Shown in pieces: positions 2,110 through 23,829 of a stretch of 24,000 bases of DNA; the first letter of the stretch is position 1; the number at the start of each line of letters is the position of its first letter. Source of the DNA: Desulfonatronovibrio hydrogenovorans DSM 9292 (GTDB taxonomy: Bacteria; Desulfobacterota; Desulfovibrionia; Desulfovibrionales; Desulfonatronovibrionaceae); contig NZ_JMKT01000016.1 of the NCBI RefSeq assembly GCF_000686525.1, forward strand, positions 69,616-93,615, read 5' to 3'. The notes beneath the pieces were generated by a model. The model was not told the DNA's origin, searched no databases, and was given only the letters and a program-made list of their open reading frames with translations. A program made the translations under genes and the position numbers.

Positions 2110-2138
2110 TTGCTACTCGGCACTCTCCAGGATATAGT
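2110..2138 (+). promoter_or_regulatory. sigma70-like promoter candidate for the FeS/cyt b/decahaem operon
   Basis: TTGCTA (2110-2115), 17-nt spacer, TATAGT (2133-2138), in an AT-rich 117-nt gap upstream of the GGAGG RBS and the ATG at 2187. Confidence 0.4.
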
Positions 2139-2186: not shown

Positions 2187-3044
2187 ATGCAGGAAGAAAG
2201 AATGAAACGCCGCCACTTCCTGAAAGGGGCTGCAGCATCCGGGGCTCTACTGCTTTATCGGCCCGGCCTGGCTGGGGCAGGTCCTGACCTGTCCAGACAG
2301 TCAGCTTTTCTTTATGACAGCATAAAATGCATCAATTGCGGAGTCTGCGAAAAAGCGTGCAAAAGGGTCAACGGGCTGCCCGAACATGCAAGCGTCATCT
2401 ATATGAGCCAGAACGCTTCAGGGCTGCCGGTCCACATTACCAGGCGCAACTCCTGCATGCAATGCATCCGCCCGGCATGTGTCAGGGCCTGTCCCACAGG
2501 AGCGACTTTTCTCAGGGGAAACGGTCTGGTCAGTTATGATTCCCAGAAATGTGCAGCCTGCGGGTACTGTGTTGACGCCTGTCCCTTCAAGCACCCCAGA
2601 ATGTCCAAGACAGCCTATTTCAACCTGCGCAATGTCTGGGTGAACAGGTGTACAAGTTGCGGAGCCTGTGCCCAGGCTTGCCCGGAAGACGCCCTGCATT
2701 TTAATTTTCGACAGGACATTCTGGCTATGGCCAAAGAACGCCTGGCTCAGATCAAATCAACTTATTCTTTACCCCAGGCCCAGCTTTACGGAGAAGAAGA
2801 CCTGAACCTCATCTGGATACTGGCTGGCAGCCCGGACAAATACGACCTGCCCGGCCCCACCGCTGCAGCAGTGGTGGATACCTCTCTGGCATTCTGGAAA
2901 GATATTGTCCGCCCGACCACGCTGCTTCTTTCCCTTATGGCAACAGGCATTTTAGGAGTAACCTACTTTTTTGCCCGCCGTAACCATCTCAAAGAGCTGG
3001 CCAGACTCAAACAGATTGAGCAGGAGGAAAAAGATGTCAAATAA
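2187..3044 (+). CDS. Tat-exported 4x[4Fe-4S] ferredoxin-type subunit, FdnH/HybA-like, with a C-terminal membrane anchor
   Basis: GGAGG lies 7 nt upstream. There is a twin-arginine signal, MKRRHFLKGAAASGALLL. Four Cys clusters are present: CINCGVCEKAC, CMQCIRPACVRACP, CAACGYCVDACP and CTSCGACAQACP. The C-terminal hydrophobic helix LLLSLMATGILGVTYFF resembles the FdnH anchor, and the protein seems collinear with E. coli FdnH as I remember it. Confidence 0.9.
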   Translation: MQEERMKRRHFLKGAAASGALLLYRPGLAGAGPDLSRQSAFLYDSIKCINCGVCEKACKRVNGLPEHASVIYMSQNASGLPVHITRRNSCMQCIRPACVRACPTGATFLRGNGLVSYDSQKCAACGYCVDACPFKHPRMSKTAYFNLRNVWVNRCTSCGACAQACPEDALHFNFRQDILAMAKERLAQIKSTYSLPQAQLYGEEDLNLIWILAGSPDKYDLPGPTAAAVVDTSLAFWKDIVRPTTLLLSLMATGILGVTYFFARRNHLKELARLKQIEQEEKDVK

Positions 3045-3702
3045 CAGCAGCGAAATCTTGATCCAAAGATTCAACAAGAGGCGCAGATTCGTGCACTGGC
3101 TTCACACCTTTGCCTTTTTCGGGCTCCTGTGTACGGGTGTTCTATATACTACTCCTTTGTTGTCCCAATGGACCGAAAGCGGCCTGGCCGGTACTTTGCA
3201 CAGATACTTTGCAGTGATTTTTCTTTTAGCCCCTTTTGTCTATATTGTCATAGATCCCAAAGGATTCAGGGAGTTCATCAGCGATACCCTGAAATTTGAA
3301 AAGAGCGATATAGGATTTCACCTGGCCATGCCCCGATATATTCTGGGCCATACCGGCGGTATACCGCCTCAGGGAAAACTTAACGCCGGGCATAAAATTC
3401 ATCATATCCTGATGGGTATTCTCTATCTTGCCCTGGCCATATCCGGACTGTCCATGTGGCTGGGAGTCGGCTACATGGGACCACCTGTATTCAACTTCAT
3501 GGGTGTACTCCACAATATCGCTGTATTCATCATTGTGATTACAACCCTGGGCCACGTATATTTCACCCTGGTTTACTGGGCCCTGCCCGGCATGATCAGC
3601 GGCAAGGTCAGCGAGACCTACGTCAGAATGGAGCATAAAAAATGGTGGGATGAAGAGCTGGCCCCGAAGCTGAAGGGTTCATCTCCCAAGAGCGGATCAT
3701 GA
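3034..3702 (+). CDS. Dihaem b-type cytochrome, FdnI / Ni-Fe-hydrogenase cytochrome b family
   Basis: I place the start at ATG 3034, with AGGAGG at 3022-3027 and an 11-nt overlap with the upstream stop, rather than at the track start 2971. There are four hydrophobic helices with conserved His positions (FVHWLHTF, GHKIHHIL, LHNIAVF..GHVYF). The FdnI-like segments GKLNAGHK and GMISGKVS....HKKWW are present. Confidence 0.85.
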   Translation: MSNNSSEILIQRFNKRRRFVHWLHTFAFFGLLCTGVLYTTPLLSQWTESGLAGTLHRYFAVIFLLAPFVYIVIDPKGFREFISDTLKFEKSDIGFHLAMPRYILGHTGGIPPQGKLNAGHKIHHILMGILYLALAISGLSMWLGVGYMGPPVFNFMGVLHNIAVFIIVITTLGHVYFTLVYWALPGMISGKVSETYVRMEHKKWWDEELAPKLKGSSPKSGS

Positions 3703-3767
3703 CCGAATGAAACAACCTTTTGAAATCCTGACCGCAATACTCCACAGCAAGGCAAGGAGGCTGTCCA

Positions 3768-6236
3768 ATGCTAAAAAACCATAAACATATACTCATGTTG
3801 ATCCTGGGCCTGTTCGTTCTGAACCTCTTTATCATGTTTCAGAACAGGGATGCCGGAGCCAGAGCCAAGTATGATCCGTCAGGATACTGGATAGCTCCCA
3901 TCCTTCCTGAAGGCCCCAGAATATTTTTCAGCGAAGGTCATGCCATTGATACCCCTGAAGCAGTCATGGCTGAAATCACAGAAATCTACATCAGCAACAA
4001 CTCAGAGATTAAGGTTACTTTTGTCATTCCAGGCTATGAACATGACACCGCCCATGTGGAGCTGACCATGGCAAAATGGCTTGAACATGAAAATACATGG
4101 ATGAGCATGCTGCAGAGGACCAGGGAGCGCGGACCGCAAAGCGACCCAAGGTATGGAGACGGAGCCAAGGTAATCCGGGGGGCAAATCTGCGCCTGGAAA
4201 GTGGCTCTGCCTTAACCGGTGGAGAGCCGGTCAGCGGTGGCATGCGTTTTTCAACCTGGCTTAAAGCCGGACCAGGTGATTTTGGAAACCTGTCAGGTGA
4301 ACTGATGCCCATCACCTTCAAAGATGGAGTACAGTGGCGCCGCAGCAGCGACCACAATCCGGCAAGCTACGGCCATCCGGATGACAGCCTATACCATGAA
4401 TTCGTGGCCGGAATAATTGATGAAATAAACAGAAATGGAGCCTGGGAACAAGGGATTTACCGTATTGGAGTAACTGAAAGGAACAGGGGCCAGGAAGGCT
4501 ATATCAGATTTAACGCAGTGACTGATTTTGAATTTGATGGAAAAAGCAGTGCGCGGATTTTAGACAGCCATGAACGAAGGCATACCGCCGGAGAAGCCGT
4601 GGCCACAGGCTCCTGCAACGGGTGTCATGGGGACAACATGCGTTTCCCCACCAACAGGGTGCATAGTGAACTCAGACATGATCCAACTGTCTGCGCCAAT
4701 TGTCATAACTCCTATACCTGGGATTCCCGCAATGCATACGCAGAAGTGGACGGTTGGCCCAGCCTGGATTTAAGAACAATGGTCCATAAAATTCATGCCG
4801 GGATCGAAGGTTATGCAGCAGATGCCTATTTTTACCAGCAGGTCAGGTTCCCGGACTGGACCCTGGGCAGAACTCCCAGACCCAGCCAGGACATCCCGTA
4901 TCCCAACAGTCCTGGCGTGGCCAATTGCACCTCATGTCATGTTTATTCGGATAGTGATGCAACTTACGCCTGGCAAAGACCAAATCCCGACCCAGAGGGC
5001 TGCGCAACTTGTCATGGCAAAGGAGGAGTCGTTTTCTGGGAAGCCCAGCCTGACGATCCTGACTATGAATACATCTCAAGGACATATGACTGTGGCTATG
5101 ACTGCTCCAGCTGTCATGGAGGGGGACAAAGGCCAATTAAACACAATGCAGACTACTACCACAAGGTGACCGAACGCCAGGAAAGGCTGGCCCTTTCCAG
5201 ACAACATGTCATGAAAGTCACCAGGGTGGAAAACGCCGTAGCAGGTCAAAGACCGGTGGTTACCTGGCGGGTGCGTAAAAATGATGAGTACCTGGATCTC
5301 TTTTCGGGTGAACACGGATCTTTCCTGTTTACTGAAGATAAGGACCTGTTTGATGAAGGAGGTGCAGTCCGGCTTGGTATTGGATGGGGGCATAAAGAAG
5401 ACTGGACCAACCAGGGAATCGGCCCCAGGAGTTCAGGAGCCATGGGAGACCCTTTTCATGAGGTAGCCCATATCGACAATACTATCCCAGGTCAGGACCA
5501 GACCACAGCAGTGACCACATTTGACTTACCTTTGCCCGAGCCAGCTTATTCCGGAAGAAACGGCTTTGTAATCATTGAATTTGGCCCCGAAGAAATACGT
5601 CTGAACAGCAGGTTGAAGAGAATTTCCCTGGGGCAGGGAATAAACAGCTTCCTGGATGACCGCCGCCAGATTGTTACTGCTGACAATTGCCTGGGTTGCC
5701 ATGCAACCATGGGCCGGCATGGCACTTATGCTGACCAGGATATCACCACCTGTGTCTCCTGCCACAATGCCGGTTCCATGACCCGGGACGCAAGTGCGCT
5801 TCAGGGAAACGTGGACTTTATGTATATGATTCACGCAATCCACGGGACAGGAGAAAAAAGGACAAGGTTTGACCGCAGGCGGGATCATACTGTTGAGGGG
5901 CATTTCAGTGGAGGCTACTCATATGTTTCCTATCCCAACACCATCCTGGAATGTGCTGCCTGTCATGTTAATGATTCTCACAATCCTGTGGGCAAGGAAT
6001 TTAAGAGACTGGGGCTGATCGCAGACAAAGGCAAGGACAAATACCTGTCAGGGGCTGGAATCGCTGCCCCTTTGTCATCAGCCTGTTATTCATGCCATGA
6101 GAACACTGAAGATTTGCGGGCCAACAAAGAGCTGCAGCACCATTTGTATCATTCAGGAGGAAACATCTATGGTGAGCATGATCATGCTTATTTTGCAGAT
6201 AACAAGGAAAACTGCCTGACCTGTCATCAAAAATAG
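3768..6236 (+). CDS. Decahaem c-type cytochrome, MtrC/OmcA-like architecture
   Basis: AGGAGG RBS. The N-terminal hydrophobic signal or anchor is ILMLILGLFVLNLFIMF, followed by ARA-K. There are ten CxxCH motifs in two pentads, at C283, 309, 387, 412, 446 and at C641, 662, 729, 773, 816. Haem-free segments cover residues 1-282 and 451-640. MVHKIHAG and MIHAIHG motifs are present. Confidence 0.9.
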   Translation: MLKNHKHILMLILGLFVLNLFIMFQNRDAGARAKYDPSGYWIAPILPEGPRIFFSEGHAIDTPEAVMAEITEIYISNNSEIKVTFVIPGYEHDTAHVELTMAKWLEHENTWMSMLQRTRERGPQSDPRYGDGAKVIRGANLRLESGSALTGGEPVSGGMRFSTWLKAGPGDFGNLSGELMPITFKDGVQWRRSSDHNPASYGHPDDSLYHEFVAGIIDEINRNGAWEQGIYRIGVTERNRGQEGYIRFNAVTDFEFDGKSSARILDSHERRHTAGEAVATGSCNGCHGDNMRFPTNRVHSELRHDPTVCANCHNSYTWDSRNAYAEVDGWPSLDLRTMVHKIHAGIEGYAADAYFYQQVRFPDWTLGRTPRPSQDIPYPNSPGVANCTSCHVYSDSDATYAWQRPNPDPEGCATCHGKGGVVFWEAQPDDPDYEYISRTYDCGYDCSSCHGGGQRPIKHNADYYHKVTERQERLALSRQHVMKVTRVENAVAGQRPVVTWRVRKNDEYLDLFSGEHGSFLFTEDKDLFDEGGAVRLGIGWGHKEDWTNQGIGPRSSGAMGDPFHEVAHIDNTIPGQDQTTAVTTFDLPLPEPAYSGRNGFVIIEFGPEEIRLNSRLKRISLGQGINSFLDDRRQIVTADNCLGCHATMGRHGTYADQDITTCVSCHNAGSMTRDASALQGNVDFMYMIHAIHGTGEKRTRFDRRRDHTVEGHFSGGYSYVSYPNTILECAACHVNDSHNPVGKEFKRLGLIADKGKDKYLSGAGIAAPLSSACYSCHENTEDLRANKELQHHLYHSGGNIYGEHDHAYFADNKENCLTCHQK

Positions 6237-6285
6237 TTGATTCGACCTGAAACCATAACCTTCAAAATCGAACCTGGTTCAGGTG

Positions 6286-6317
6286 GCGGGGCTCTGAGCT
6301 TTATGCTCAAGCCCCGC
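6286..6317. terminator. GC-rich hairpin between convergent cytochrome genes (candidate terminator)
   Basis: GCGGGGC (6286-6292) pairs with GCCCCGC (6311-6317). An inner TGAGC (6295-6299) pairs with GCTCA (6305-6309), around the loop TTTAT. A weak T-rich tract ATTTATGTT follows on the + strand. Confidence 0.5.
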
Positions 6318-6324
6318 ATTTATG

Positions 6325-6600
6325 TTACAGGGTCACAAGATACTTAAGCAAAGCTTGGCGTTCTGCATCACTCAGGGCAGGACCGAAATTGCCCTTACCC
6401 ATCATCCTGTCAACAGTACTTTTCCAGCCATCCAGATCGTGCCCGGCTCTTTCAATCCGTCCTGCTCCGTGACAGGTTGTGCATCTGGTTTCCATAATAG
6501 CCTGTCCGTCTCCGGCCTGGAGCTTCATATCCTGCAAACCGAACATGAATAGACTACCCAGCATAACAAGACAAATTGAAGTCAGTAGAACTCTCTTCAT
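6325..6600 (-). CDS. Small exported monohaem cytochrome c
   Basis: The start is placed at ATG 6600 (MKRVLLTSICLVMLGSLFMF signal peptide), with AGGAGG immediately upstream. There is a single CTTCH motif. The pattern CxxCH...R....GW..TV.RM......L...E...L.KYL resembles the haem-binding domain of quinohaemoprotein amine dehydrogenase alpha, from memory. Confidence 0.75.
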   Translation of the reverse strand: MKRVLLTSICLVMLGSLFMFGLQDMKLQAGDGQAIMETRCTTCHGAGRIERAGHDLDGWKSTVDRMMGKGNFGPALSDAERQALLKYLVTL

Positions 6601-6739
6601 TTGTTCCTCCTTATTCAAAAGATTAAGGTTATAAAAAACCCTAACAGAATTACTGCTGTCTGACAACTATGCAGCAGAATTCTCAATGACCTGTCCGGAA
6701 AAAAGGCCAGGAATTATGTAGGCGATTCTAACAAAAAGA

Positions 6740-7039
6740 CTATGGACAGCAGGAATCTGGGGACAAGACTTTGCGCAGGATCGGCACTTTGACCAGCCAT
6801 CCATACAAGATGGCCTGGGCGCAGCCAACTCCCGGGCGGACATACACGGCTTCAACCGGGCAATTGGTCATGCATGCTCCGCATTCCATGCATGCATCCC
6901 GGTCAAGGATCAGTGCTTTCCCATCCTGCAGGGCAAAGACCTGGTGCGGACAAACGTCAAGGCAATTGCCGCAGCCTATGCACAGGTTCTTATCAAAGCA
7001 TAGGGTGGCTACGTCTGGAAGGTGTCTGAATGTCTTCAT
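6740..7039 (-). CDS. hgcB: HgcB, mercury-methylation 2x[4Fe-4S] ferredoxin
   Basis: 99-aa ORF starting 7 nt after the hgcA stop. It carries CIGCGNCLDVCP and CMECGACMTNCP, an extra conserved Cys in GVGCA and a C-terminal vicinal pair, DSCCP. The N-terminus MKTFRHLPDVATL is typical of HgcB. Confidence 0.9.
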   Translation of the reverse strand: MKTFRHLPDVATLCFDKNLCIGCGNCLDVCPHQVFALQDGKALILDRDACMECGACMTNCPVEAVYVRPGVGCAQAILYGWLVKVPILRKVLSPDSCCP

Positions 7040-7046
7040 AATACTT

Positions 7047-14580: not shown

Positions 14581-15785
14581 AGCCCGCCCATGGTAAACAT
14601 TCCATCATCGTAGATAGTTATCACATCCTTATTTTTCAGATGCGCACGCACTGTTTTCTTTTCAGTGTTCACCAGATCCCAGTGCAGGGCCGAATCATTA
14701 AAGCCCAGCTCTTTTTTCAGTTCCTTGGTCAGTGTGTCTGGGTCATCTGAAAAAGTATCTGAGTAGGAAGCTCCAAGGGCAACATGGCAGTTGCCATTAG
14801 GGCCACCAAAATTCTCATCAAACAAAGTATGAGCCATAAACTTGTCTATGCGTGAAAACCGTTTGTCTGTCAGTGAAAACTCGCCCAGAAAAGAAGCTCC
14901 CTCATCAAGGGCTACCTGTTTGAGCAAAAATTCCTGCCCTTCCTCTGCTTCGGCCTTGACAACCTTGCCGTCCTGAAACTCAAGCCGGACCCCCCTGACC
15001 AGGTTGCCACTCCGATACGAGGGCTGGTCAGCATAAAAAACACCCTGGGTCCTTCGATAGTCCGGAGAAAGAAAAATTTCAAAACTGGGGATGTTATGAC
15101 CGGACACACCCAGCCATTTTCTTTTCAATCCCGGAAAGACCTTTAAATCCGTATTTTCGGACACAACATGAAAGTATTCCACATCCATCTGATTGAGCCA
15201 GGTCTTGACCTTTTTTGAGGTCTCAAAAATGCTCTGCCACAAGGCTCCAGGGTCAGCCTGGTCCAGGTATGCTGCCTTGATTATCTGCCTTTTATACTCA
15301 TCAATCTCCATCCCAGCCTTGGAGGCAAGTTCCCCGGTGGGGTAGAGGCAAAGGCTCCATCCAAATTCACCCTTATTCTCCCTGTCTTCCAGTATGTCTC
15401 TTAAGTATTTCTTGGTAACAGCATATTTACCAATTCTTGAAGGATCGACATCTTTGAGGTGGGTCAGTGATTCAGGCCCCAAAAGGGAAATAAGACCATT
15501 AAGAGAGGAATAAAGTTCAGCATCCCCCGGGATTCTGAACTCAAGCTGATGGTCCTGGGCACTGGTAAAGAAGGTTTTTTCAAGATCTTCAGGCAGATTG
15601 ATCCTGACCACCGGGTTGAGTTCCATTATCAGCAACTGCCTGTATATTTCATCAGCCAGTGGAAGACAGGCCTTATCAGTCCTGATCAAAACGATATTAT
15701 CTTTGACAAATGGATTTTTACGGGCCTTTTTCATGCCCCAGATCATGACCTGGGCGTACCTGTCCAATTCTTCCGTGGTAAACAA
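14577..15785 (-). CDS. M29-family (AmpS/PepS-like) aminopeptidase
   Basis: 402 aa with a TTG start and AGGAG upstream. The N-terminal EELDRYAQVMIWG resembles the LEKYAELLV.G pattern of M29 enzymes. A CHVALGASY metal-site-like motif lies near the C-terminus. The family call is from memory. Confidence 0.7.
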   Translation of the reverse strand: MFTTEELDRYAQVMIWGMKKARKNPFVKDNIVLIRTDKACLPLADEIYRQLLIMELNPVVRINLPEDLEKTFFTSAQDHQLEFRIPGDAELYSSLNGLISLLGPESLTHLKDVDPSRIGKYAVTKKYLRDILEDRENKGEFGWSLCLYPTGELASKAGMEIDEYKRQIIKAAYLDQADPGALWQSIFETSKKVKTWLNQMDVEYFHVVSENTDLKVFPGLKRKWLGVSGHNIPSFEIFLSPDYRRTQGVFYADQPSYRSGNLVRGVRLEFQDGKVVKAEAEEGQEFLLKQVALDEGASFLGEFSLTDKRFSRIDKFMAHTLFDENFGGPNGNCHVALGASYSDTFSDDPDTLTKELKKELGFNDSALHWDLVNTEKKTVRAHLKNKDVITIYDDGMFTMGGL

Positions 15786-16396
15786 TTTTCATCTCCTTTG
15801 ATGTTCAATTCGTGCATTAGACTGATAATCTGTTCAGGGCTAAAAATAAAGTCATTGGTTGGTTCCAGACCAAGCTCAGCAATCCAGTCCTGATTCAGTT
15901 CGTGATATGTCTTTGCAGTGGAGTTTTCCATGTCCAGACCAAGGCACTGAACTTTCTTAACAATAACCTCTTCAGCTGCCTCCAGTTCTACAAATCTGCC
16001 AAAAGGGAGAATATCCAGGCAGATCTTGACATCTTGCATTTTCCATACCTGTCTGAACTTCTCATACTTAAGCCAAATAGAGTATCCTAGGGAACAGAAA
16101 ATTGCAAAGACTTCTCCGGCATCTCCAATGGTCGTTTCAAATTCCTGCCTGGTTTTAGCGATCCCAGGCCCGGCATCAGGGACAGGAAGTTTAAGGGTAA
16201 GTTTATTGGCCATTCCAGAACGAATCCTTAAAAGACAGTCTCTCTTCCTGAGTCGCCCGGTTTGGTCATCAAGCACAATATTCTGCTCAAAATACCATGG
16301 GCTGGAATGAGCTTCCATTCCAGCCAATCTTGTGGTTATTTCCCTGAAGCCCTCTACCCTGAACTTCAGCTCCGTTTCAATCTGCATTACTTTCAT
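15743..16396 (-). CDS. CYTH-domain protein (class IV adenylate cyclase CyaB / triphosphatase-like)
   Basis: The N-terminal IETELKFRV carries the ExExK signature of CYTH. The protein continues through LRIR....LTLK and ends the domain at ICLDILPFGRFVELEA. It has about 40-50 extra C-terminal residues compared with the typical ~180 aa. A GGAG RBS is present. Confidence 0.8.
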   Translation of the reverse strand: MKVMQIETELKFRVEGFREITTRLAGMEAHSSPWYFEQNIVLDDQTGRLRKRDCLLRIRSGMANKLTLKLPVPDAGPGIAKTRQEFETTIGDAGEVFAIFCSLGYSIWLKYEKFRQVWKMQDVKICLDILPFGRFVELEAAEEVIVKKVQCLGLDMENSTAKTYHELNQDWIAELGLEPTNDFIFSPEQIISLMHELNIKGDENCLPRKNWTGTPRS

Positions 16397-16443
16397 TCAT
16401 CTCCAAGGATTCCTGAGACCGCCTGATCATTCATCGATTTCTT

Positions 16444-16473
16444 TTGACAACTTCCCTTATTAGTACCTATACA
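16444..16473 (+). promoter_or_regulatory. sigma70-like promoter candidate for the REC/HD-GYP gene
   Basis: TTGACA (16444-16449), 18-nt spacer, TATACA (16468-16473). The -35 element coincides with the TTG that the ORF track uses as a start, which supports ATG 16540 as the real start. Confidence 0.35.
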
Positions 16474-16539
16474 CCTATTAAAGATCAACAAGTTGTAACT
16501 TATCCTGATCCCTTTCTTTTCAATATCCCGGAGCAGCAT

Positions 16540-17724
16540 ATGGTAAATCAGAGGGTCCTTTTTGTTGACGATGACCTAAACATCCTTGAAGGATTCCAGC
16601 GCACCCTGCGCAAAAAATTCCAGGTGGAAACTGCAACTGGCCCAATGCAGGGACTTCGGACCATCAATGAAAAAGGTCCATACGCTGTAGTGGTGGCCGA
16701 CCTTAAAATGCCCAAAATCAGCGGCATTGAATTTCTTTCCAGAGTCAAAAAACTGTTTCCAGAGACTGTCAGAATAATGCTGACCGGACATGGAGACCTG
16801 AATGTGGCCATGGAAGCCATAAACCAGGGAAATGTATTTCGCTTCCTGGTCAAACCGTGCGCACCCCATGAGATTGACAATGCCTTGCAGGCAGGGATTG
16901 AACAGTATCGTCTGGTCACCCTGGAAAAGGACATCATGGAAAAGACTGTTACCGGGATTACCGACACCCTGACGGACATATTGACCATCACCAATGAAGA
17001 AGCCATGGGCAGAGCAACAAGAATCAAACGATTCGTCCGGGACGTGGCTCTGCACCTGGGTGAGACAGATGTCTGGTTTTATGAGACCGGAGCTTTACTG
17101 TCCCAGATCGGATGCGTTGTCCTGCCCCAGGCAATCCTGCAGAAAATTAAAACCGGGGAAAAACTTGAAGATGAAGAGCTGGAGCTGTTCAGTCAACACC
17201 CCTTTATTGCCTCGAATCTGATCAGCAAGATACCCAGACTGGAAAAGCTGGGCAACATGGTCGCCTACCAGGAAAAACATTACAATGGAGATGGGTTCCC
17301 AGCTGGCACGGTCAAAGGCAGGGATATCCCTCTGGGATCTCGGATTCTAAAGATCGTTCTGGACTATGACCTGCTCATAAACAGAGGGTTTTCGAGAAAA
17401 GACAGTTTACTGCGGATGCTGGACAGAAAGGGACGCTATGATCCAAAAGTAATAAAGGCATTTATTGAAGTCCTTCAGCTGGAGGAACAATACTCATATA
17501 GCAGGGTCTCAGTGAAAGATCTGCTGCCTTACATGATTGCTGGAGATGAGATCCTGTCTTTAAGCGGCATGCTCCTGCTTCAAAAAGGAAGCGAATTGAC
17601 TCTGAGCCAGGTGGAGAGACTGAACAGTCTGGAAAAGACCTATGGAGTCAAACAGCCCATTTCAGTATTGATTCCTCCAAAGGAAATCCGCAGGAAAAAA
17701 GAATCATTAACCCGGGAAGGTTGA
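16540..17724 (+). CDS. Response regulator with a degenerate HD-GYP domain
   Basis: ATG 16540 has GGAG 7 nt upstream. The REC domain looks intact (VDDD, ADLKMP, LTGH, VKPC). In the HD-GYP-like domain the HD dyad reads SQ (ALLSQIGC), HHE reads YQE and GYP reads GFP (YQEKHYNGDGFP). Confidence 0.8.
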   Translation: MVNQRVLFVDDDLNILEGFQRTLRKKFQVETATGPMQGLRTINEKGPYAVVVADLKMPKISGIEFLSRVKKLFPETVRIMLTGHGDLNVAMEAINQGNVFRFLVKPCAPHEIDNALQAGIEQYRLVTLEKDIMEKTVTGITDTLTDILTITNEEAMGRATRIKRFVRDVALHLGETDVWFYETGALLSQIGCVVLPQAILQKIKTGEKLEDEELELFSQHPFIASNLISKIPRLEKLGNMVAYQEKHYNGDGFPAGTVKGRDIPLGSRILKIVLDYDLLINRGFSRKDSLLRMLDRKGRYDPKVIKAFIEVLQLEEQYSYSRVSVKDLLPYMIAGDEILSLSGMLLLQKGSELTLSQVERLNSLEKTYGVKQPISVLIPPKEIRRKKESLTREG

Positions 17725-17741
17725 CCTGCCCCGGTTTTTTT
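17709..17741 (+). terminator. Rho-independent terminator candidate
   Basis: AACCCGGG (17709-17716) pairs with CCCCGGTT (17729-17736) at 7 of 8 positions. The 12-nt loop contains the TGA stop. A T7 run follows. Confidence 0.4.
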
Positions 17742-17755
17742 CAGACAGACTCCAG

Positions 17756-18979
17756 TCAGTCTTCATCAGACTCCATTGCTGTCCTGCCGTCCTTAAGTGC
17801 CAGAGCCTGCCATGACTCCAGTCTGTCTAACAGCCCCATTCTGCCCAGATATTCCAGGTCAAAATCAGGAACGAAGTAGTCAGGGTTAACGATATAGTAT
17901 TTGCGTTCCAGGATGTTGGCCGCATAAACTGCGCTGACCGGGTTAAAGGTCTGGACCGGCTTGGAGGGATTGTGGTGAAAGGCTATGGCCTCAACAATGG
18001 AAATCGGCAGTCCCCATATCCCCATGAGATATGCACCTATCTCGGCATGGGTCGTGCCCATGATCTCCAGCTCCACTTCATGTACAGACCGATTTTCTTG
18101 ACGCACCTTTTCCAGGATCATGTTGTAACGGTCTGGAAGCTGACTTGCCAGAACAAGCTTGCCCACATCATGGAGCAAACCTCCAATATAGCATTCATCA
18201 GCCATATCCTTGGTAATTCCTTCAGCCCGCCCCAGCTTTTCAGCCAGCCTTCCTGTTGTCAGGCAATGCTCCCACAGATCCTTAAGAGAGAAACCCGGGA
18301 CCCTGGAAAAATCAAATACAGAAAAAATATGTACTGACAATATAAGGGACCGGATCACGTTTGTGCCCAGGAGGGTGGCGGCCTGTTCCGGACTGGAAAT
18401 ATGCCTGCAGAACCCGAAAAATGAAGAATTAACCAGCTTTAACAGCTTTGCACACATCCCCACATCCTGGGAAATAATTTTGCCGATTCTGGCCAGAGAA
18501 GGCTCTGGGCCTGAAAGCTCCCTGACTACCTGATGATAAACCTCAGGCACAGCCGGAAGAGAACCGATGCTGTTTATAACAGACTGGACTGAGTCATCTT
18601 CGATCAAGTCCTTGATAGCCACGGCCTTTTCAATCACTGCTTTCAACTGCTCAGAACTGCAGGGTTTTGAGAGATACTGGTGAGCAGGCAGGACTGTCTG
18701 GATGACTGAGTCAATATCCGAGTGTCCTGACAGGATGATCCGGATGGTGCGCGGATATTTCGTCATTACCTGGGTCAGCAGTTCTGCACCGTCCATACCC
18801 GGCATGCGCATGTCTGTAACAACGACATCCATCGGCTCTTTACCCATAAGGGCCAGCGCTTCTGACCCGCTCTGAACAAAAAACATCTTCCACTCGGTCC
18901 GCATAGGCCTGAGCATTCTTTTCAAGCCACTAAGGATGTTCTGCTCATCATCTACAAAAAGAACCTGTTTTACATGCAC
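17756..18979 (-). CDS. Response regulator with an HDOD output domain
   Basis: The start is preferred at GTG 18979, with GGAGGAGG just upstream and 16 nt after the kinase stop; the track start is 19069. The REC signature is VDDE, TDMRMPGMDG, LSGH, SKPC. The HDOD region contains LPAVPEVY...LLKLVNSSFFG...LLHDVGKLVL. Confidence 0.85.
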   Translation of the reverse strand: MHVKQVLFVDDEQNILSGLKRMLRPMRTEWKMFFVQSGSEALALMGKEPMDVVVTDMRMPGMDGAELLTQVMTKYPRTIRIILSGHSDIDSVIQTVLPAHQYLSKPCSSEQLKAVIEKAVAIKDLIEDDSVQSVINSIGSLPAVPEVYHQVVRELSGPEPSLARIGKIISQDVGMCAKLLKLVNSSFFGFCRHISSPEQAATLLGTNVIRSLILSVHIFSVFDFSRVPGFSLKDLWEHCLTTGRLAEKLGRAEGITKDMADECYIGGLLHDVGKLVLASQLPDRYNMILEKVRQENRSVHEVELEIMGTTHAEIGAYLMGIWGLPISIVEAIAFHHNPSKPVQTFNPVSAVYAANILERKYYIVNPDYFVPDFDLEYLGRMGLLDRLESWQALALKDGRTAMESDED

Positions 18980-18995
18980 AAGCCTCCTCCTTTGC

Positions 18996-20957
18996 TTACG
19001 GCTGAGGTATCCTGACCGAGAAAAGAGTTCCCTGGCCAGGCGTTGAATCAAATGTGATGCTGCCCCCATGCTTGTCTACAACGATGGAATAAGCTATGGC
19101 CAGGCCCTGGCCCGTGCCCTTACCCACGGGTTTTGTAGTAAAAAACTGGTTGAACACTCTGTCCTGGTATTTAGCAGGAATCCCTGCTCCGGTATCTTCA
19201 ATCTGTATTTCCACATAACCTTCAGCTACACCAACCCTGACCTTGATCAGTCCCTTCTCATCCGTACCCTGCACCTTTTCTTTAATAGCCTGGGCTGCGT
19301 TAACAATAAGATTTAAAAAAACCTGATTAAGATCATGAGGATAGCCCCGGATACCTGGCAGGTCAGGGGGAAAAGAAGTCTTAACTTCTGCCACGTATTT
19401 CCACTCGTTTCTGCATATGGCGATGGTGTTTTCCAGAGAATCCCTGAGATCAAAGTAGGTCATTTCATCACGTTCACCAGGGTGGGAAAACTTTTTCATG
19501 GCCTTGACTATAGTACTGATCCGCTCCAGCCCCTGCAGGGACTGCTCTATGGATCTGGGAACTTCGGAAACGAGAAAATCATAATCTGCCCTCTCCCTGG
19601 CTGCATCCAGGTTTTTGACTAAATCCCGGTCCAACAACTCCCTGACAATTGTGTCATATTCGTCAACCAGACCCATGATATCTTCAAAGACGTCCTTCAA
19701 AAACCTGGTATTATCCCCAACATACTGGGCTGGAGTGTTTATTTCGTGAGCTATGCCGGCAGCCAGTTCTCCCACTGCTTCCAGCTTCTGGGCATGGGCC
19801 AGCTGCATCTCCAGGGATTTGCGCTCAGAAATGTCGTGGAAAATTAGGACGACTGATTTTTTCTGTTGAAATTCTTCCTCAAAAGCACAAAAGGAAACAG
19901 GAACCACTTCTCCGGCATGATCTTTGAGTTTGATCTCTTTATGATACACAGGCAGGCATTCAGTACAAAAATCAAAACCAAGTTCTTGCCCGTCAAAGAC
20001 TTTTCTAACCACCTGATCATAATCTTTACCCAGGAGGTCATTGTCCTTAAATAATTTTTCAGCCTCTTCATTTAACCTGACTATCTTTCTGGACTCAATA
20101 TCCACCACCACCAGAGATACATTGATGGCCTGCAGAACAGAGTTGAGTATCCTTTCGTTTTCTTCAAGGCCCATCAACGCCCTATTCCGGCTGGTGGTGT
20201 CTTCTCCGATTGCCTGATAATAAAGAAACTCCCCGTTTCCATCATACATTGCCCTGGCAGTCCACTTTTGCCAACCCACAGATCCATCAGGCCTGGTGGC
20301 AGCAAACTCATAATAATCAATCGGATTCTCTCTGGTCAGTTTATTTAGCCTTTTGTGGGCTTCAGCCTTGACTTCTGCCGGCAACAGGTCATGCCACGTT
20401 CTTCCTATGAGTTCATCAGCAGATTTTCCAAAAAAATCACAATAGGCATTGTTTACAAAATAAAGAGTTGAATCTTTATGAAAAGTGCAGACCATGATGG
20501 GCATATCCTGAGACAGTCGGCGAAACTTTTCCTCACTGTCTTTCAGTTTATTTTCTACAGTTCTACGCTTCAGCTCCAGCTCGGCTTCCTTTTGCTTCCT
20601 GCGCAGAGCAAGATCAATTTCAGCCACCAGCTGCCCGCTTTCCACTGGTTTCCTAAGATAAGCATATGGAAGAGTCTCGGCAGCCCTTTGAATGGTATGC
20701 TCATCATACAGAGCAGAAATAAAGATTACAGGTATGGACCAGTTGTTTCTGATAATTCCTGCGGCCTCTATGCCGTCCATTTCACCAGGCAGCATGATAT
20801 CCATTAAGACCACATCCGGTGGTTGCCGGGCAATGCTTTTGATAGCCTCATCCCCTGTTCCGGCTTCAGCACACACTTCATAGCCATGTTTCTGAACCGT
20901 CTTTTTTAAAATGGTCCTTGCAGTCTGGTCATCTTCAACAATCAAAATTTTCTTCAT
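18996..20957 (-). CDS. Hybrid sensor histidine kinase (N-terminal REC, PAS x2, HisKA, HATPase_c)
   Basis: The REC signature is IVEDD...LMDIMLPGEMDG...KP. Two PAS-like regions follow. The H-box is AAGIAHEINTP. The ATPase G-boxes are EDTGAGIP and GTGQGLAI. Confidence 0.9.
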   Translation of the reverse strand: MKKILIVEDDQTARTILKKTVQKHGYEVCAEAGTGDEAIKSIARQPPDVVLMDIMLPGEMDGIEAAGIIRNNWSIPVIFISALYDEHTIQRAAETLPYAYLRKPVESGQLVAEIDLALRRKQKEAELELKRRTVENKLKDSEEKFRRLSQDMPIMVCTFHKDSTLYFVNNAYCDFFGKSADELIGRTWHDLLPAEVKAEAHKRLNKLTRENPIDYYEFAATRPDGSVGWQKWTARAMYDGNGEFLYYQAIGEDTTSRNRALMGLEENERILNSVLQAINVSLVVVDIESRKIVRLNEEAEKLFKDNDLLGKDYDQVVRKVFDGQELGFDFCTECLPVYHKEIKLKDHAGEVVPVSFCAFEEEFQQKKSVVLIFHDISERKSLEMQLAHAQKLEAVGELAAGIAHEINTPAQYVGDNTRFLKDVFEDIMGLVDEYDTIVRELLDRDLVKNLDAARERADYDFLVSEVPRSIEQSLQGLERISTIVKAMKKFSHPGERDEMTYFDLRDSLENTIAICRNEWKYVAEVKTSFPPDLPGIRGYPHDLNQVFLNLIVNAAQAIKEKVQGTDEKGLIKVRVGVAEGYVEIQIEDTGAGIPAKYQDRVFNQFFTTKPVGKGTGQGLAIAYSIVVDKHGGSITFDSTPGQGTLFSVRIPQP

Positions 20958-21077
20958 GCCAGATCCTTAAAAACTTATTGAATTTAATTTGCTGGAATCC
21001 AAACGGAGAAGCCGGCCAGATTATTTGGATATATATAGAAAAGAGTCCTCAGAACCTGGTAGCAAGGCAACCAGTTT

Positions 21078-21554
21078 CTACTGGCCTGCAATGCTTATTT
21101 CCACGACCAGCTTGCCTTTGGCACAGGAAAAAGGAACAGACAGGATAGGGGAAGAAGGAATATGGTCAAGTTTACGGCCTTTTCCCTGAACTACTCTTGG
21201 TGTTTTAGCCTTAAAAACCATGCCTGACTCGGCCAGCTCCTTACGGGCCTGGCCGGATATCATATTGGTCAACTCGCCCACAGCATCAGCAATATCATCA
21301 TTGAGTTCAGTATAGTTCTCAAAAAGCATATTATTGACTATGGATAAAATAACGTCTTTGCCAAGACTAAGGGACAACACTCCCTTGGAGTAGCCATCTA
21401 TTTCCAAAAGACCAGTGATATCGCCGACAGATGTTCTTTTTTTGTTCAGGTAAGGCTTTCCAGGAACAACCTCGATATTCGCCATACTGGAGAGGACACT
21501 TTGGACTGCGTTTAGAACCGGGTTTATGAATTCGACATTGTATTGCTCAGCCAT
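21078..21554 (-). CDS. cheX: CheX-family CheY-P phosphatase
   Basis: The start is preferred at ATG 21554 (MAEQYNVEFINPVLNAVQSVL). The protein is collinear with remembered CheX sequences: FINPF......VL..M, GDITGLL, DAVGELTNMISG. The track start, TTG 21617, is less likely. Confidence 0.85.
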   Translation of the reverse strand: MAEQYNVEFINPVLNAVQSVLSSMANIEVVPGKPYLNKKRTSVGDITGLLEIDGYSKGVLSLSLGKDVILSIVNNMLFENYTELNDDIADAVGELTNMISGQARKELAESGMVFKAKTPRVVQGKGRKLDHIPSSPILSVPFSCAKGKLVVEISIAGQ

Positions 21555-21642
21555 GGAGTTATAATGGACTCCACTTTTTTCAGGGTCAACTGTTAAATGG
21601 CAATTTTTTCCGGGCAAAACCCAGGCCTCTTGGCCTGGATAC

Positions 21643-22866
21643 TCAAATAAGCATGTGGGAAACCTGTCTCAAGGCTTCCCCGTGCTTTTGGAAAAGATCA
21701 ACCACTTGATTTGTGCCGAGCTTCAGTTCCTGCCAGAAATCATCCTCCATTCCAGGCAAAACATAACTCCAGCCTCCGGCAATAGCAAAAGCCACAGCCA
21801 TATTGTCGGCCAGCTGGATTATTGCGGCCTGGCGGGGCAGGTCTGAACCTTTGGCCTGATGATGATTGCCAACCAGGCTGGCCAGCCTGTCCGGACAGCC
21901 CCAGGCCCTCAGGAGTTTTTCTCCCAGTCCGGCGTGATTGAAGCCAAGAATAACTTCTTCAGCCTCAGGCAGGGGAAGAGTATTTCCTCTGGCATGAAGC
22001 AGAACCTGCAGGTAAGCTTGGGGAAGGTTTTTCAAAAGCAATAAACGCCCCACATCATGCAAAAGCCCGGCAGTAAAAAACTGCTCGCCCTCGAACCCGC
22101 ACAACCTGGCCAGTTCCTTGGAAAAAATAGCGCAGCTTATGGAGTGGCGCCAGAAAGTAGACACATCCATCAGGTCCGAGGGAATGTCCTTGAACATGGG
22201 CATGGCGATAATCCCCAGGGCCAGACTGGATACACCCTCTACTCCGATGATGGCCACAGCCCTTTCAATTGAATCTACCTGAGATGGGAAAGCATATATG
22301 GGGCTGTTGACAAGACGCAACAGCTTGGCGGTAAGATTGACGTCCAGACGCACAACATCGGCTACATGCCGGGCTGAACTGTCCGGAGACTTTAAAATCT
22401 CCTGCAACCTGAAATAGGTATCTGGAACTGAAATCAGCTCCATCTCATGGCTGACAATATCCTCAGGACCTCCCTCTTCCTTAAAGAAAAGATCCCGCAT
22501 CCCCTGATGTTCAGTGGCCCGGAATTCATGCCCGCATGGCAGGACCCAGTCACCGGCCTGGACCAGGCGGGACATGGTACTCTCCAGGACCTCCCTGTAC
22601 AGGCTGTTGAAGACTGGGCTGTCCGGATCAACATAATTGAAATATGGCCGGACATGCTCCTGGCAGCGCCTGGCCAGGTCTTCCAGATCCTCTTGCTCCC
22701 CTTGAGATATGACACGGACCCAGCTGATGCCCAGATCAATCAGACCCTGGATATGTCCAACGGACAAAAGAGTACCCTTGGGAATGAAAACACTGTCATC
22801 CACTCCAGGCACGTCTTTGCCTATCTCCATTCCAGGCTGAAGGTGCTCAGTACAGACTTTTTTCAC
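21643..22866 (-). CDS. HDOD-domain protein with an uncharacterised N-terminal domain of about 180 aa
   Basis: The start is preferred at GTG 22866, with GGAGG 7 nt upstream. The HDOD region contains LLRLVNSPIYAF...AGLLHDVGRLLL...GNHHQ. I do not recognise the N-terminal part. Confidence 0.8.
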   Translation of the reverse strand: MKKVCTEHLQPGMEIGKDVPGVDDSVFIPKGTLLSVGHIQGLIDLGISWVRVISQGEQEDLEDLARRCQEHVRPYFNYVDPDSPVFNSLYREVLESTMSRLVQAGDWVLPCGHEFRATEHQGMRDLFFKEEGGPEDIVSHEMELISVPDTYFRLQEILKSPDSSARHVADVVRLDVNLTAKLLRLVNSPIYAFPSQVDSIERAVAIIGVEGVSSLALGIIAMPMFKDIPSDLMDVSTFWRHSISCAIFSKELARLCGFEGEQFFTAGLLHDVGRLLLLKNLPQAYLQVLLHARGNTLPLPEAEEVILGFNHAGLGEKLLRAWGCPDRLASLVGNHHQAKGSDLPRQAAIIQLADNMAVAFAIAGGWSYVLPGMEDDFWQELKLGTNQVVDLFQKHGEALRQVSHMLI

Positions 22867-22950
22867 TCCTGAACCTCCAAATTTCAACGTAAACCACCAG
22901 CTGATGGCCAAAATAAGCTTCAATCAAGTCAGTCACATTCTACTCCGGGC

Positions 22951-23829
22951 CTATTCCATTCTTTGATAGACCATTCCTCCGGGTTTTCTCACAGGCTGAA
23001 ATATGTTGGTTATACTGTGCAGTGACTCTGAGTGGCCGAGGATGAGATATCCACCAGGCTGAAGGTTGTCGTAAAAGGCATTTATGACCTTCTTTTTCAT
23101 GGCCAGGTCAAAATAAATAATCACATTGCGGCAAAATACGATCTGCGATCTTGGGATGGTTTTCAAGGCAGCAGTATCGTTCAGGTTAATCTTTTGAAAA
23201 TTGACATTTTTCTGGACCTTGGGATGGATTCGGTATCCGCCCGGCTCCTTGGTGAAATATCTGGCTATGATGTCTTTGGGGGTATTGCGAAGTGAATAAT
23301 CATTATAAAGACCCTGCTTTGCCTTCTCAATCATTGCGCTTGATATATCATTGGCAGTAATCCTTATTTTCCATCCGATTATGCCCAGCTTGAGAATTTC
23401 ATGAAGCATCATGCTCAGTGTGTAGGGCTCTTCACCTGACGAACAGCCAGCTGACCAGATATTCAGACTTTTTCTGCCTGAGTTTTTCTGCTCGTCAAGA
23501 GTGGGCATCAGGATGGAATCCCTGAACACATCCAACTGTTTCTGATCCCGAAAAAAGCTGGTTTCATTGGTGGTCATCTTTTCACAGAAGACCTCTATTT
23601 CCTGTTTTCTGTCTGCACCATGACGAAGATATTGATAGTATTCGGAAAAACTCTTGAGCTTGAGTTCAATAATCCTTGAACGCAGCCTGTTTTCAAGCAG
23701 ATACTTTCTTTGCTTGGGAACATCTATCCCGGCCAGCTGGTAGATAAAAGAGCGCAGTTCCTCAAACTCCTTATCAGTCAAGGGGGTGGTAGTGCGAAGA
23801 CCCAGAGGCTGCGAACTGAAAAATGACAT
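22951..23829 (-). CDS. cheR: CheR protein-glutamate O-methyltransferase
   Basis: The protein contains LTDKEFEELRSFIYQLAGI and TNETSFFRD, plus the SAM-binding segment IWSAGCSSGEEPYTLSMML and a C-terminal LQPGGYLILGHSE. Confidence 0.9.
   Translation of the reverse strand: MSFFSSQPLGLRTTTPLTDKEFEELRSFIYQLAGIDVPKQRKYLLENRLRSRIIELKLKSFSEYYQYLRHGADRKQEIEVFCEKMTTNETSFFRDQKQLDVFRDSILMPTLDEQKNSGRKSLNIWSAGCSSGEEPYTLSMMLHEILKLGIIGWKIRITANDISSAMIEKAKQGLYNDYSLRNTPKDIIARYFTKEPGGYRIHPKVQKNVNFQKINLNDTAALKTIPRSQIVFCRNVIIYFDLAMKKKVINAFYDNLQPGGYLILGHSESLHSITNIFQPVRKPGGMVYQRME

Follow-up and report, generated by a model that had tools for sequence, protein, structure and literature searches.

A putative menaquinone-linked complex with an OmcA/MtrC-type decahaem cytochrome in Desulfonatronovibrio hydrogenovorans

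Ohc of Desulfovibrio vulgaris (ohcBAC, DVU3143-3145) is a three-subunit Desulfovibrionales membrane complex without a molybdopterin subunit: an FeS protein on the periplasmic side, a membrane protein with haem b and a multihaem cytochrome c together connect periplasmic cytochromes with the menaquinone pool (PMC4641369, PMC6491731). The CbcL/MtrH/MtoC family is regarded as the inner-membrane entry or exit of extracellular electron transfer and is thought to be bidirectional (PMC6295460); like CbcBA, it is found in Geobacter and iron oxidisers and combines an FdnI/HydC-like dihaem cytochrome b with a multihaem cytochrome c. Modules of the PhsABC type pair a four-cluster FeS protein carrying a C-terminal helix with a four-helix dihaem cytochrome b, and their PhsB-like FeS protein is exported together with the molybdopterin subunit.

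We analysed a 24,000-nucleotide stretch of the genome of the alkaliphilic sulfate-reducing bacterium Desulfonatronovibrio hydrogenovorans (hereafter the window), in which genes for an FeS protein, a dihaem cytochrome b and a decahaem cytochrome c follow one another. This triad resembles Ohc in subunit make-up, and Ohc is biochemically uncharacterised; OhcA is an octahaem cytochrome of another family whereas the triad partner, of MtrC/OmcA type, is a decahaem containing two beta-barrel domains, and the gene order is B-A-C in Ohc but FeS-cytochrome b-cytochrome c here. CbcL/MtrH/MtoC and CbcBA differ from the triad in having the cytochrome b part joined or next to the cytochrome c part, no FeS subunit intervening, and in a c part that is not of the MtrC/OmcA family. 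The triad shares both membrane-module subunits with the PhsABC type, but it lacks a molybdopterin subunit, has a decahaem gene downstream, and its FeS protein bears its own Tat signal. Tentatively, since we consider it somewhat short of an even chance, we read the triad as a single periplasm-facing inner-membrane complex that would pass electrons from menaquinol to the decahaem and on to an acceptor, and that would derive from a PhsBC/FdnHI-type module.

Operon layout and component proteins

All three genes lie on the + strand: the FeS gene (A, 2187-3044, 285 aa, WP_028575521.1), the cytochrome b gene (B, with its ATG at 3034 and extending to 3702, 222 aa, WP_028575522.1) and the decahaem gene (C, 3768-6236, 822 aa, WP_028575523.1). 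As an earlier note on this sequence had described, A and B overlap by 11 nt, 65 nt separate B from C, and the ribosome-binding sites are strong. These sites (GGAGG for A, AGGAGG for B and C) stand 8-9 nt before the start codons, and the reading frames are complete. No terminator-like site was found on the + strand between B and C. Downstream of C, a GC-rich hairpin (6286..6317, strand unassigned) lies between the decahaem gene and a convergent gene, and the region 6237-6330 folds with a dG of -37.7 kcal/mol (z = -5.5 vs shuffles); it probably acts as a two-way terminator where the operon ends. The tight packing, the strong ribosome-binding sites, the lack of a terminator between B and C and the strong hairpin after C are in keeping with a single complex. 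In the A/T-rich gap upstream of A, a sigma-70-like candidate (TTGCTA-17-TATAGT, 2110..2138, + strand) matches at 9 of 12 positions; such sites are no commoner in the region than in shuffles, and it is a weak candidate for the triad promoter.

The convergent gene (6325..6666, - strand; called gene 6325-6600) encodes a small monohaem class-I cytochrome c with one CTTCH motif and PF13442, PF00034 and SorB-like matches. Its convergent position is also kept in D. magnus, and it was not found adjoining the triads of loci L002 and L003; this cytochrome is a possible but unproven redox partner of the triad. As the earlier note had stated for the operon, no molybdopterin gene was present there; the rest of the window and the 6 kb farther upstream had none either, and no porin, MtrA-like or other multihaem gene was detected in the window or adjoining any triad.

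The FeS protein was found to be collinear with FdnH, its best PDB match (1kqf_B, E=1e-27), with all 16 cluster cysteines present in four groups (C48/51/54/58, C90/93/98/102, C122/125/128/132 and C155/158/161/165) and a single hydrophobic helix at about residues 240-266 as C-terminal membrane anchor. Its N-terminus carries the twin-arginine motif MKRRHFLKG, including the RRHFLKG reported previously, and scores 21.1 bits (E=2.8e-4) against Pfam TAT_signal, slightly below the 22.7 cut-off. The predicted Tat signal peptide (residues 1-31, 2187..2279, + strand, MKRRHFLKGAAASGALLLYRPGLAGA) is likely cleaved after LAGA. It is nothing unusual for a four-cluster FeS subunit to bear a Tat signal of its own: HmcB, NrfC and DsrO have one, as does a HybA-like FeS protein at locus L021.

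Cytochrome b, annotated as 'formate dehydrogenase subunit gamma', contains four hydrophobic transmembrane helices, scores 62 bits against PF01292, and is collinear with FdnI, its best solved-structure match (1kqf_C, E=1e-12). All four haem-ligand histidines are kept (His21/56/160/174, corresponding to FdnI His18/57/155/169), and so is the quinone-site motif NAGxK (N117-A-G-H-K, corresponding to FdnI N110-A-G-Q-K). E. coli FdnGHI thus shares with the triad the cluster cysteines, the haem ligands and the quinone motif; unlike it, the triad has no FdnG and a Tat-bearing FeS protein, and both proteins lie far under the NCBIfam equivalog cut-offs (101.5 bits against 334.7 for FDH-beta; 80.9 bits against 115.85 for TIGR01583).

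The third gene encodes, as proposed earlier, an OmcA/MtrC-like decahaem cytochrome. Exactly ten CxxCH motifs are arranged 5+5 (residues 283-450 and 641-820) in the OmcA/MtrC domain plan of barrel, five haems, barrel, five haems, which it has in common with Shewanella MtrCAB/OmcA. It scores 137 bits against PF22113 and 188 bits against TIGR03507 (cut-off 209.3), and the only significant Foldseek matches of its AF2 model, a low-confidence one (pLDDT 61), were UndA, OmcA and MtrF (1.5e-17 to 3e-10). Identity to classical family members is only 23-26%, and the protein is a member of a branch of the OmcA/MtrC family from soda lakes. It differs from MtrCAB/OmcA in that the locus has no MtrA or MtrB, in that its one hydrophobic segment, N-terminal and either a signal peptide or an anchor, is without a lipobox Cys, and in that 20 of its 21 cysteines are in haem motifs, which leaves no spare pair for the domain III disulfide.

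Conservation of the triad and nearest relatives of its modules

Searching genomes for co-occurrence showed that the FeS, cytochrome b and decahaem genes recur in this order in D. magnus and in two soda-lake MAGs, one from Desulfonatronospira and the other a second Desulfonatronovibrio MAG (3-4 further genomes or MAGs), with triad proteins at 64-91% amino-acid identity, and 64-67% across genera. The genes flanking the triad differ between these genomes, and since order is conserved at such identities while the flanks differ, the arrangement is not due to chance. FeS and cytochrome b relatives this close occur only in the same triads. Furthermore, in a Desulfohalobiaceae MAG the gene of a decahaem orthologue (55-56% identical) comes immediately after those of an FeS protein and an NrfD-type subunit and shares 14 nt with the latter; such an NrfC/NrfD-like pair beside the decahaem (the variant at loci L005 and L023) recalls Aeromonas NetBCD-MtrCAB, in which NetCD adjoins mtrCAB. 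Both the synteny amid unrelated flanks and this independent coupling to FeS and NrfD subunits support the reading as one complex.

Decahaems coupled to inner-membrane modules form one distinct clade, without the collagen-like Gly-rich tether of other family members; the lipobox Cys is lost in two of its members, D. hydrogenovorans among them, and kept in 3 of 5. More distant family members sit in outer-membrane porin-cytochrome or T2SS clusters. The separateness of the clade, together with its tether and lipobox losses and the retained cofactor sites, likewise favours a joint complex.

Outside the triads, an exhaustive search placed the nearest relatives of cytochrome b (42, 36 and 35% identity) in operons for a PhsA-like molybdopterin subunit, an FeS subunit and a cytochrome b. 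One operon also encodes a TorD-like chaperone and another a rhodanese, and the FeS subunits of these operons are 27-32% identical to that of the triad and lack a Tat signal; a ~39-residue N-terminal extension of the triad protein is absent in the PhsB-like relatives at loci L024, L026 and L027. PhsBC-type (thiosulfate/polysulfide-reductase-like) modules are nearer in sequence to the FeS-cytochrome b pair than Fdn-N is, so that the 'Fdn-like' label of the earlier note holds for collinearity with FdnHI and not for closest kinship. Its suggestion that a cytochrome occupies the place of the catalytic subunit, with gain of a Tat signal, fits these data, as the nearest module relatives sit behind a molybdopterin subunit and have Tat-less FeS proteins; the Tat signal itself is no special mark. 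That the nearest module relatives are of reductase type is also in line with menaquinol oxidation.

Direction of electron flow and alternative roles

In the proposed complex, the molybdopterin subunit of a PhsBC/FdnHI-type module would have been replaced by the decahaem. Cytochrome b, with two haems b, would hold a menaquinone/menaquinol site close to the haem on the cytoplasmic side; the FeS protein, leaving the cytoplasm through its own Tat signal and anchored by its C-terminal helix, would act as a wire of four [4Fe-4S] clusters; and we infer that the decahaem, exported by Sec and in D. hydrogenovorans free of a lipid anchor, would dock on it in the periplasm. Electrons would pass from menaquinol via the cytoplasmic-side and periplasmic-side haems b, the four clusters and ten haems c, ending on an acceptor in the periplasm or outside the cell. 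The result would be a reverse redox loop: since the protons of quinol would be set free at the cytoplasmic face, the membrane potential would help to drive electrons towards acceptors of low potential. Such a drive is known for thiosulfate reductase PhsABC, which oxidises menaquinol and requires proton motive force, and is inferred for CbcL/CbcBA. In the CbcL family an FdnI/HydC-like cytochrome b does work with a multihaem cytochrome c in quinol oxidation, which supports this route (PMC6295460).

Several points count against this reading. Among the Desulfovibrionales, the named membrane complexes with a cytochrome c (Qrc, Ohc, Nhc, Hmc, Tmc) are all assumed to work inward (PMC6491731). The lipobox kept in 3 of 5 clade members means that the decahaem may instead lie at the cell surface or on the outer membrane. 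The organism is strictly an H2/formate-oxidising sulfate reducer, and since the hydrogenases in its periplasm can pass electrons to cytochromes directly, an outward quinol-to-cytochrome route would bring no obvious bioenergetic benefit. The same complex could run as a cytochrome c:menaquinone oxidoreductase akin to Ohc or Qrc, taking electrons from cytochrome c3, hydrogenase, formate dehydrogenase or an external donor (Fe(0), reduced minerals, a syntrophic partner) through decahaem, FeS clusters and two haems b to menaquinone at the cytoplasmic side, with energy conserved as a redox loop as in Fdn-N. We consider this somewhat unlikely. The FdnHI architecture and cytoplasmic-side quinone motif are those of an energy-conserving inward loop; the lineage lives on H2 and formate, and where acetate is oxidised syntrophically D. 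magnus acts as the partner that consumes H2/formate (PMC6295475); Ohc, the Desulfovibrio analogue with FeS protein, octahaem c and haem b protein, is assigned the direction TpIc3 to menaquinone (PMC6491731, PMC4641369); and members of the CbcL/MtrH/MtoC family are present in Fe(III) reducers and Fe(II) oxidisers alike (PMC6295460). However, the FeS-cytochrome b pair is nearest to PhsA-like reductase-type operons and not to dehydrogenases, and characterised MtrC/OmcA proteins are mainly terminal reductases. Moreover, Qrc normally already does the inward job in sulfate reducers of the Desulfovibrionales.

It is also improbable that the decahaem is merely co-transcribed and acts in the same pathway from the outer membrane, cell surface or soluble periplasm, with the FeS-cytochrome b pair a general membrane anchor and link to quinone for some Tat-exported enzyme whose gene lies elsewhere (a periplasmic hydrogenase, formate dehydrogenase or molybdoenzyme) or a donor to soluble cytochrome c3. 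Hydrogenases are indeed served by HybA-type FeS proteins that carry a Tat signal of their own, three clade members kept the lipobox, the wider decahaem family is the surface component of porin-cytochrome clusters, and the spacing before C is looser than the A-B overlap. Yet related genomes couple the decahaem to two different inner-membrane modules, once by overlapping genes, no porin, MtrA-like or second multihaem gene lies in the window or beside any triad, the D. hydrogenovorans protein has lost both tether and lipid anchor, and the close relatives of the pair are confined to triads. That the pair is a decaying molybdoenzyme-operon remnant next to an unrelated cytochrome gene is very improbable: the molybdopterin gene is indeed missing, and FeS and cytochrome b scores fall under all curated family cut-offs, but cofactor ligands, frames and ribosome-binding sites are intact, the FeS protein gained a functional-looking Tat signal, and the triad is kept across genera.

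The menaquinol-to-decahaem direction of the earlier note is plausible, and the opposite direction equally precedented. Its view that the combination was no described system stands for the MtrC/OmcA version, since our literature search found no paper describing an FeS-cytochrome b-MtrC/OmcA-type decahaem triad; an FeS protein, cytochrome b and multihaem cytochrome c without a molybdopterin subunit is known as Ohc (PMC4641369, PMC6491731), and coupling of an FdnI-like cytochrome b to a multihaem cytochrome c is known from CbcL/MtrH/MtoC (PMC6295460). The novelty lies in the choice of an MtrC/OmcA-type cytochrome for partner, the principle being familiar from Ohc, CbcL/Cbc, Phs and NetBCD. In D. 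hydrogenovorans the triad most likely wires the menaquinone pool to the decahaem, with electron flow outward rather than inward modestly favoured.

Layout and surroundings of the operon

The operon consists of three co-oriented genes on the forward strand. Gene A (2187-3044, +) encodes an FeS protein of 285 aa with 16 Cys in four ferredoxin-type clusters, the twin-arginine (Tat) motif RRHFLKG and one C-terminal hydrophobic helix; gene B (ATG at 3034, end at 3702, +), preceded by an AGGAGG site, encodes a four-helix cytochrome b of 222 aa (PF01292); and gene C (3768-6236, +) encodes a decahaem cytochrome c of 822 aa with ten CxxCH motifs arranged as 5+5 and one N-terminal hydrophobic segment. 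Genes A and B overlap by 11 nt, and 65 nt separate B from C. The three-gene layout described in the earlier note therefore matches the sequence in its coordinates, overlap, gap, Cys clusters and haem motifs. Its claim that the operon holds no molybdopterin gene was likewise borne out: the window, the 6 kb before it and the neighbourhood of every triad are free of molybdopterin genes, including FdnG and PhsA/PsrA. No terminator-like site was found between B and C, and base composition was uniform across the region. A promoter and terminator scan returned site counts no better than those of shuffled sequences, and among the scanned signals only a strong hairpin 3' of gene C (dG -37.7 kcal/mol, z -5.5) was convincing.

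Convergent to the decahaem gene lies a small monohaem class-I cytochrome c (6325-6666, -; CTTCH; SorB/c553-like), which may serve as a redox partner; its position is kept in D. magnus, and it is absent beside the triads of two MAGs. The operon also adjoins the mercury-methylation pair (6740-8018, -), formed by hgcB (6740-7039; NF040864, 120.6 bits, cut-off 99) and hgcA (7047-8018; NF040863, 396.8 bits, cut-off 275). Since both genes score above their cut-offs, D. hydrogenovorans looks like a potential Hg methylator. Just past hgcA, at 8373-10398 (-), are a MOT1-family molybdate transporter (PF16983, 179 bits) and a TauE/SafE sulfite-exporter-like protein; it is curious to find a molybdate transporter beside a module that derives from a molybdoenzyme but lacks molybdenum, though this may be coincidence. 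A dense signalling island follows at 10763-23829, with two PAS-GGDEF proteins, an HD-GYP-like response regulator (HD_5), two HDOD proteins, a hybrid histidine kinase, CheX and CheR. Upstream of the operon, a ChrB_N protein (106-669, +) and, in the 6 kb of DNA before the window (L001, 1-6000), a ChrA chromate transporter, PadR- and ArsR-type regulators, a radical SAM protein, a rhodanese and a DsbD-like thiol-disulfide protein together look like a metal or oxyanion stress neighbourhood.

Conservation and relatives of the FeS-cytochrome b module

The three proteins are identical to D. hydrogenovorans accessions WP_028575521, WP_028575522 and WP_028575523, labelled '4Fe-4S dicluster domain-containing protein', 'formate dehydrogenase subunit gamma' and 'multiheme c-type cytochrome', respectively. 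The genome search that the earlier note had proposed, for co-occurring FdnH-like, FdnI-like and MtrC/OmcA-like genes, showed that the FeS-cytochrome b-decahaem order recurs at three further places: in D. magnus (83-91% identity), in a Desulfonatronospira MAG and in a second Desulfonatronovibrio MAG (63-68%). The flank differs in D. magnus, where feoAB takes the position held by hgcAB in the window. At the locus of the second Desulfonatronovibrio MAG (L003), the decahaem gene is directly followed (5792-7237, +) by a second FeS protein with a Tat signal (319 aa, C-terminal helix) and by a small, His-rich membrane protein of 161 aa; upstream, the opposite strand carries a fragment of a further FdnI-like cytochrome b (272-721). 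For both the FeS and the cytochrome b protein, close relatives were found only in these triads. The next-best FeS relatives are generic and about 30% identical, and the contexts of remote FeS homologues (FeS+NrfD, hydrogenase+HybA) revealed no more than a generic FeS family.

Among solved structures, gene A best matched FdnH (E=1e-27) and gene B best matched FdnI (E=1e-12). The Fdn beta and gamma hallmarks are present, namely four [4Fe-4S] Cys clusters with a C-terminal membrane helix and a four-helix dihaem cytochrome b with four His. His21/56/160/174 of gene B align with the FdnI haem ligands His18/57/155/169, and its N117-A-G-H-K loop aligns with N110-A-G-Q-K of FdnI, a loop that in the Fdn-N structure lines the menaquinone site near the cytoplasmic-side haem. 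However, both proteins scored below the curated Fdn cut-offs (gene A against TIGR01582, 101.5 bits, cut-off 334.7; gene B against TIGR01583, 80.9 bits, cut-off 115.85). Fdn-N proper was rejected on these scores, the absence of FdnG and the PhsBC-like nature of the nearest relatives; assignment of gene A to HmcB, HybA, DsrO or NrfC was rejected as well, all scores being far under the cut-offs.

When gene B was searched exhaustively with HMMER against 1.84 billion representatives, only seven proteins fell below 1e-30. Its closest relatives outside the triads, P0083, P0086 and P0084 (42, 36 and 35% identity), are each encoded in an operon with the order molybdopterin subunit-FeS-cytochrome b. The top NCBIfam match of these molybdopterin subunits, below its cut-off, is the thiosulfate reductase PhsA; one operon also carries a TorD-like chaperone and another a rhodanese. 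Their FeS subunits start right at the first cluster, without a signal peptide, whereas gene A carries a 39-residue Tat-bearing extension. This comparison supports the earlier proposal that the module lost its catalytic subunit and that its FeS protein has its own export signal. The proposed kinship with FdnH and FdnI holds at the level of structure matches and haem ligands, but not as membership of the curated Fdn families. Because the Fdn structure matches are accompanied by sub-cut-off scores and the nearest relatives belong to PhsA-like operons, the module is, from its sequence, best described as PhsBC/FdnHI-type. The gene B family is moreover modular, as it includes natural single-chain fusions of an FdnH-like FeS domain to an FdnI-like cytochrome b (P0125, P0169) and of a dihaem c domain to cytochrome b (P0166).

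A separate clade of OmcA/MtrC-type decahaems

Gene C matched PF22113 with 137 bits (cut-off 30) and the OmcA/MtrC family TIGR03507 with 188 bits, slightly under the cut-off of 209.3. Two pentahaem domains alternate with two beta-barrel domains, and an AF2 model showed beta-rich segments at residues 65-265 and 480-620. This model, built from 17 homologues (pLDDT 61), was confident only in the two beta-barrel domains and low in the haem domains, and was used solely for family-level fold matching; in Foldseek against the PDB its only significant matches were UndA, OmcA and MtrF. Together with the ten CxxCH motifs and the PF22113 score, these matches uphold the earlier description of the third gene as an MtrC/OmcA-like decahaem.

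Homologues sharing 33-45% identity occur in soda-lake and related organisms (Desulfurivibrio and Desulfurispira, and MAGs of Geobacteraceae, Desulfuromonadales, Desulfobacterales, Clostridiales and Thioalkalivibrio). They carry a lipobox and, after it, a collagen-like Gly-rich tether, and several are encoded beside further multihaem cytochromes, putative porins or T2SS genes, in outer-membrane conduit clusters. At the Desulfurivibrio alkaliphilus CP001940 locus (L014, 1453-10421), flanked by T2SS genes, a candidate outer-membrane electron conduit comprises a 9-haem cytochrome, a TPR protein, a CHRD protein, two further multihaem proteins and a 457-aa protein that has no Pfam match and may be a porin, and ends with the decahaem homologue. 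The triad-linked decahaems, in contrast, form a separate clade without the Gly-rich tether. The N-terminal lipobox Cys is missing in the window and D. magnus proteins and present in 15 other family members, and no porin or MtrA-like gene was found near the locus. A classical Mtr pathway was accordingly rejected at the window locus, where MtrA, MtrB and a porin are not nearby and the lipobox is missing.

The basal clade member, from a Desulfohalobiaceae MAG (55-56% identity), is encoded directly behind an FeS protein and an NrfD-type subunit, and its gene overlaps that of the NrfD-type subunit by 14 nt. The decahaem is thus linked to two different quinone-interacting modules, which is the strongest genomic argument for a functional link to the inner membrane.

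Electron flow and comparison with known systems

The anatomy argues for an electron wire that joins the decahaem to the menaquinone pool; it would run from a quinone site at the haem b on the cytoplasmic side through the haem b on the periplasmic side and four [4Fe-4S] clusters to ten haems c. We infer that the decahaem is periplasmic and docks on the module, and likewise in which direction electrons flow. Outward flow, which would be a reverse redox loop helped along by the membrane potential, is modestly favoured, because the nearest module relatives belong to reductase-type enzymes, because the OmcA/MtrC cytochromes are a family of terminal reductases, and because FdnI-like cytochromes b of the CbcL family oxidise quinol for low-potential acceptors (PMC6295460). 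A serious rival is inward flow, in which the triad would act as a cytochrome c:menaquinone oxidoreductase like Ohc or Qrc: H2 and formate sustain the host, the native direction of the Fdn architecture is inward, and Ohc itself is assigned to transfer from TpIc3 to menaquinone (PMC6491731, PMC4641369). Alternatively, the FeS-cytochrome b pair may work for a different Tat-exported enzyme or for soluble cytochromes, with the decahaem located elsewhere.

A more specific reading, which we consider unlikely, makes the triad a stand-in for a Phs/Psr-type reductase that works with haem and without molybdenum or, in reverse, an electron-uptake module. The MtrC-like decahaem would then be the periplasmic catalytic subunit of an inner-membrane complex, in which menaquinol electrons, driven by the membrane potential via a reverse redox loop, would reduce polysulfide, thiosulfate, sulfur or metal species, possibly as an adaptation of soda-lake sulfur cyclers; in the reverse variant, electrons would be taken up from minerals or a syntrophic partner. 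Relevant to this reading is Dethiobacter alkaliphilus, a soda-lake sulfur and thiosulfate reducer without molybdopterin oxidoreductases, whose multihaem cytochromes are upregulated on thiosulfate (PMC10376724).

Several known systems resemble the triad in part. Ohc, as defined (PMC4641369), is an operon that encodes a periplasmic FeS protein, a membrane protein with haem b and a multihaem cytochrome c but no molybdopterin subunit, a plan that the triad shares; however, OhcA is an octahaem cytochrome, and the triad cytochrome is of the ten-haem MtrC type and not OhcA-like. CbcL, MtrH and MtoC likewise combine an FdnI-like cytochrome b with a multihaem cytochrome c, but as one polypeptide (multihaem c plus HydC/FdnI-like b) without FeS, whereas the triad has separate genes and an FeS subunit; fusion to a c-type domain does occur among gene B relatives (P0166). 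The membrane subunit of NrfCD, SirCD and NetCD is haem-free and NrfD-type (PF03916), in contrast to the PF01292 protein of the triad; at the Desulfohalobiaceae locus, an NrfD-type subunit accompanies the orthologous decahaem. NrfCD-like pairs are known beside mtrC, as in NetBCD. PhsBC-type modules are closest in sequence, the nearest relatives of the FeS-cytochrome b module being beta/gamma subunits of PhsA-like operons, but the triad has no PhsA/PsrA. The impression of an unfamiliar gene combination thus stood in part: a description of the triad was not found in literature on Desulfonatronovibrio with multihaem, MtrC or OmcA, but its principle is already known from the Ohc, CbcL/MtrH/MtoC and NetBCD precedents. 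Apparently new, in that we did not find it described, is the pairing of such a module with a decahaem of the OmcA/MtrC family, without MtrAB, in sulfate reducers.

In the textbook view, MtrC/OmcA decahaems are terminal reductases of the cell surface and rely on MtrAB. Here, a decahaem clade in hydrogen-oxidising sulfate reducers is found with two module types, has lost the tether and, in two species, the lipid anchor. D. hydrogenovorans and D. magnus, the latter a partner in a syntrophic acetate-oxidising culture (PMC6295475), are both cultured, which makes expression and biochemistry directly testable. The triad is a concrete candidate route for electron exchange between alkaliphilic sulfate reducers and low-potential acceptors, minerals or partners. 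If the clade is wired straight to inner-membrane quinone modules, the MtrC/OmcA family would be redeployable as the periplasmic head of a respiratory complex, and molybdoenzyme scaffolds could exchange their catalytic subunit for a multihaem cytochrome.
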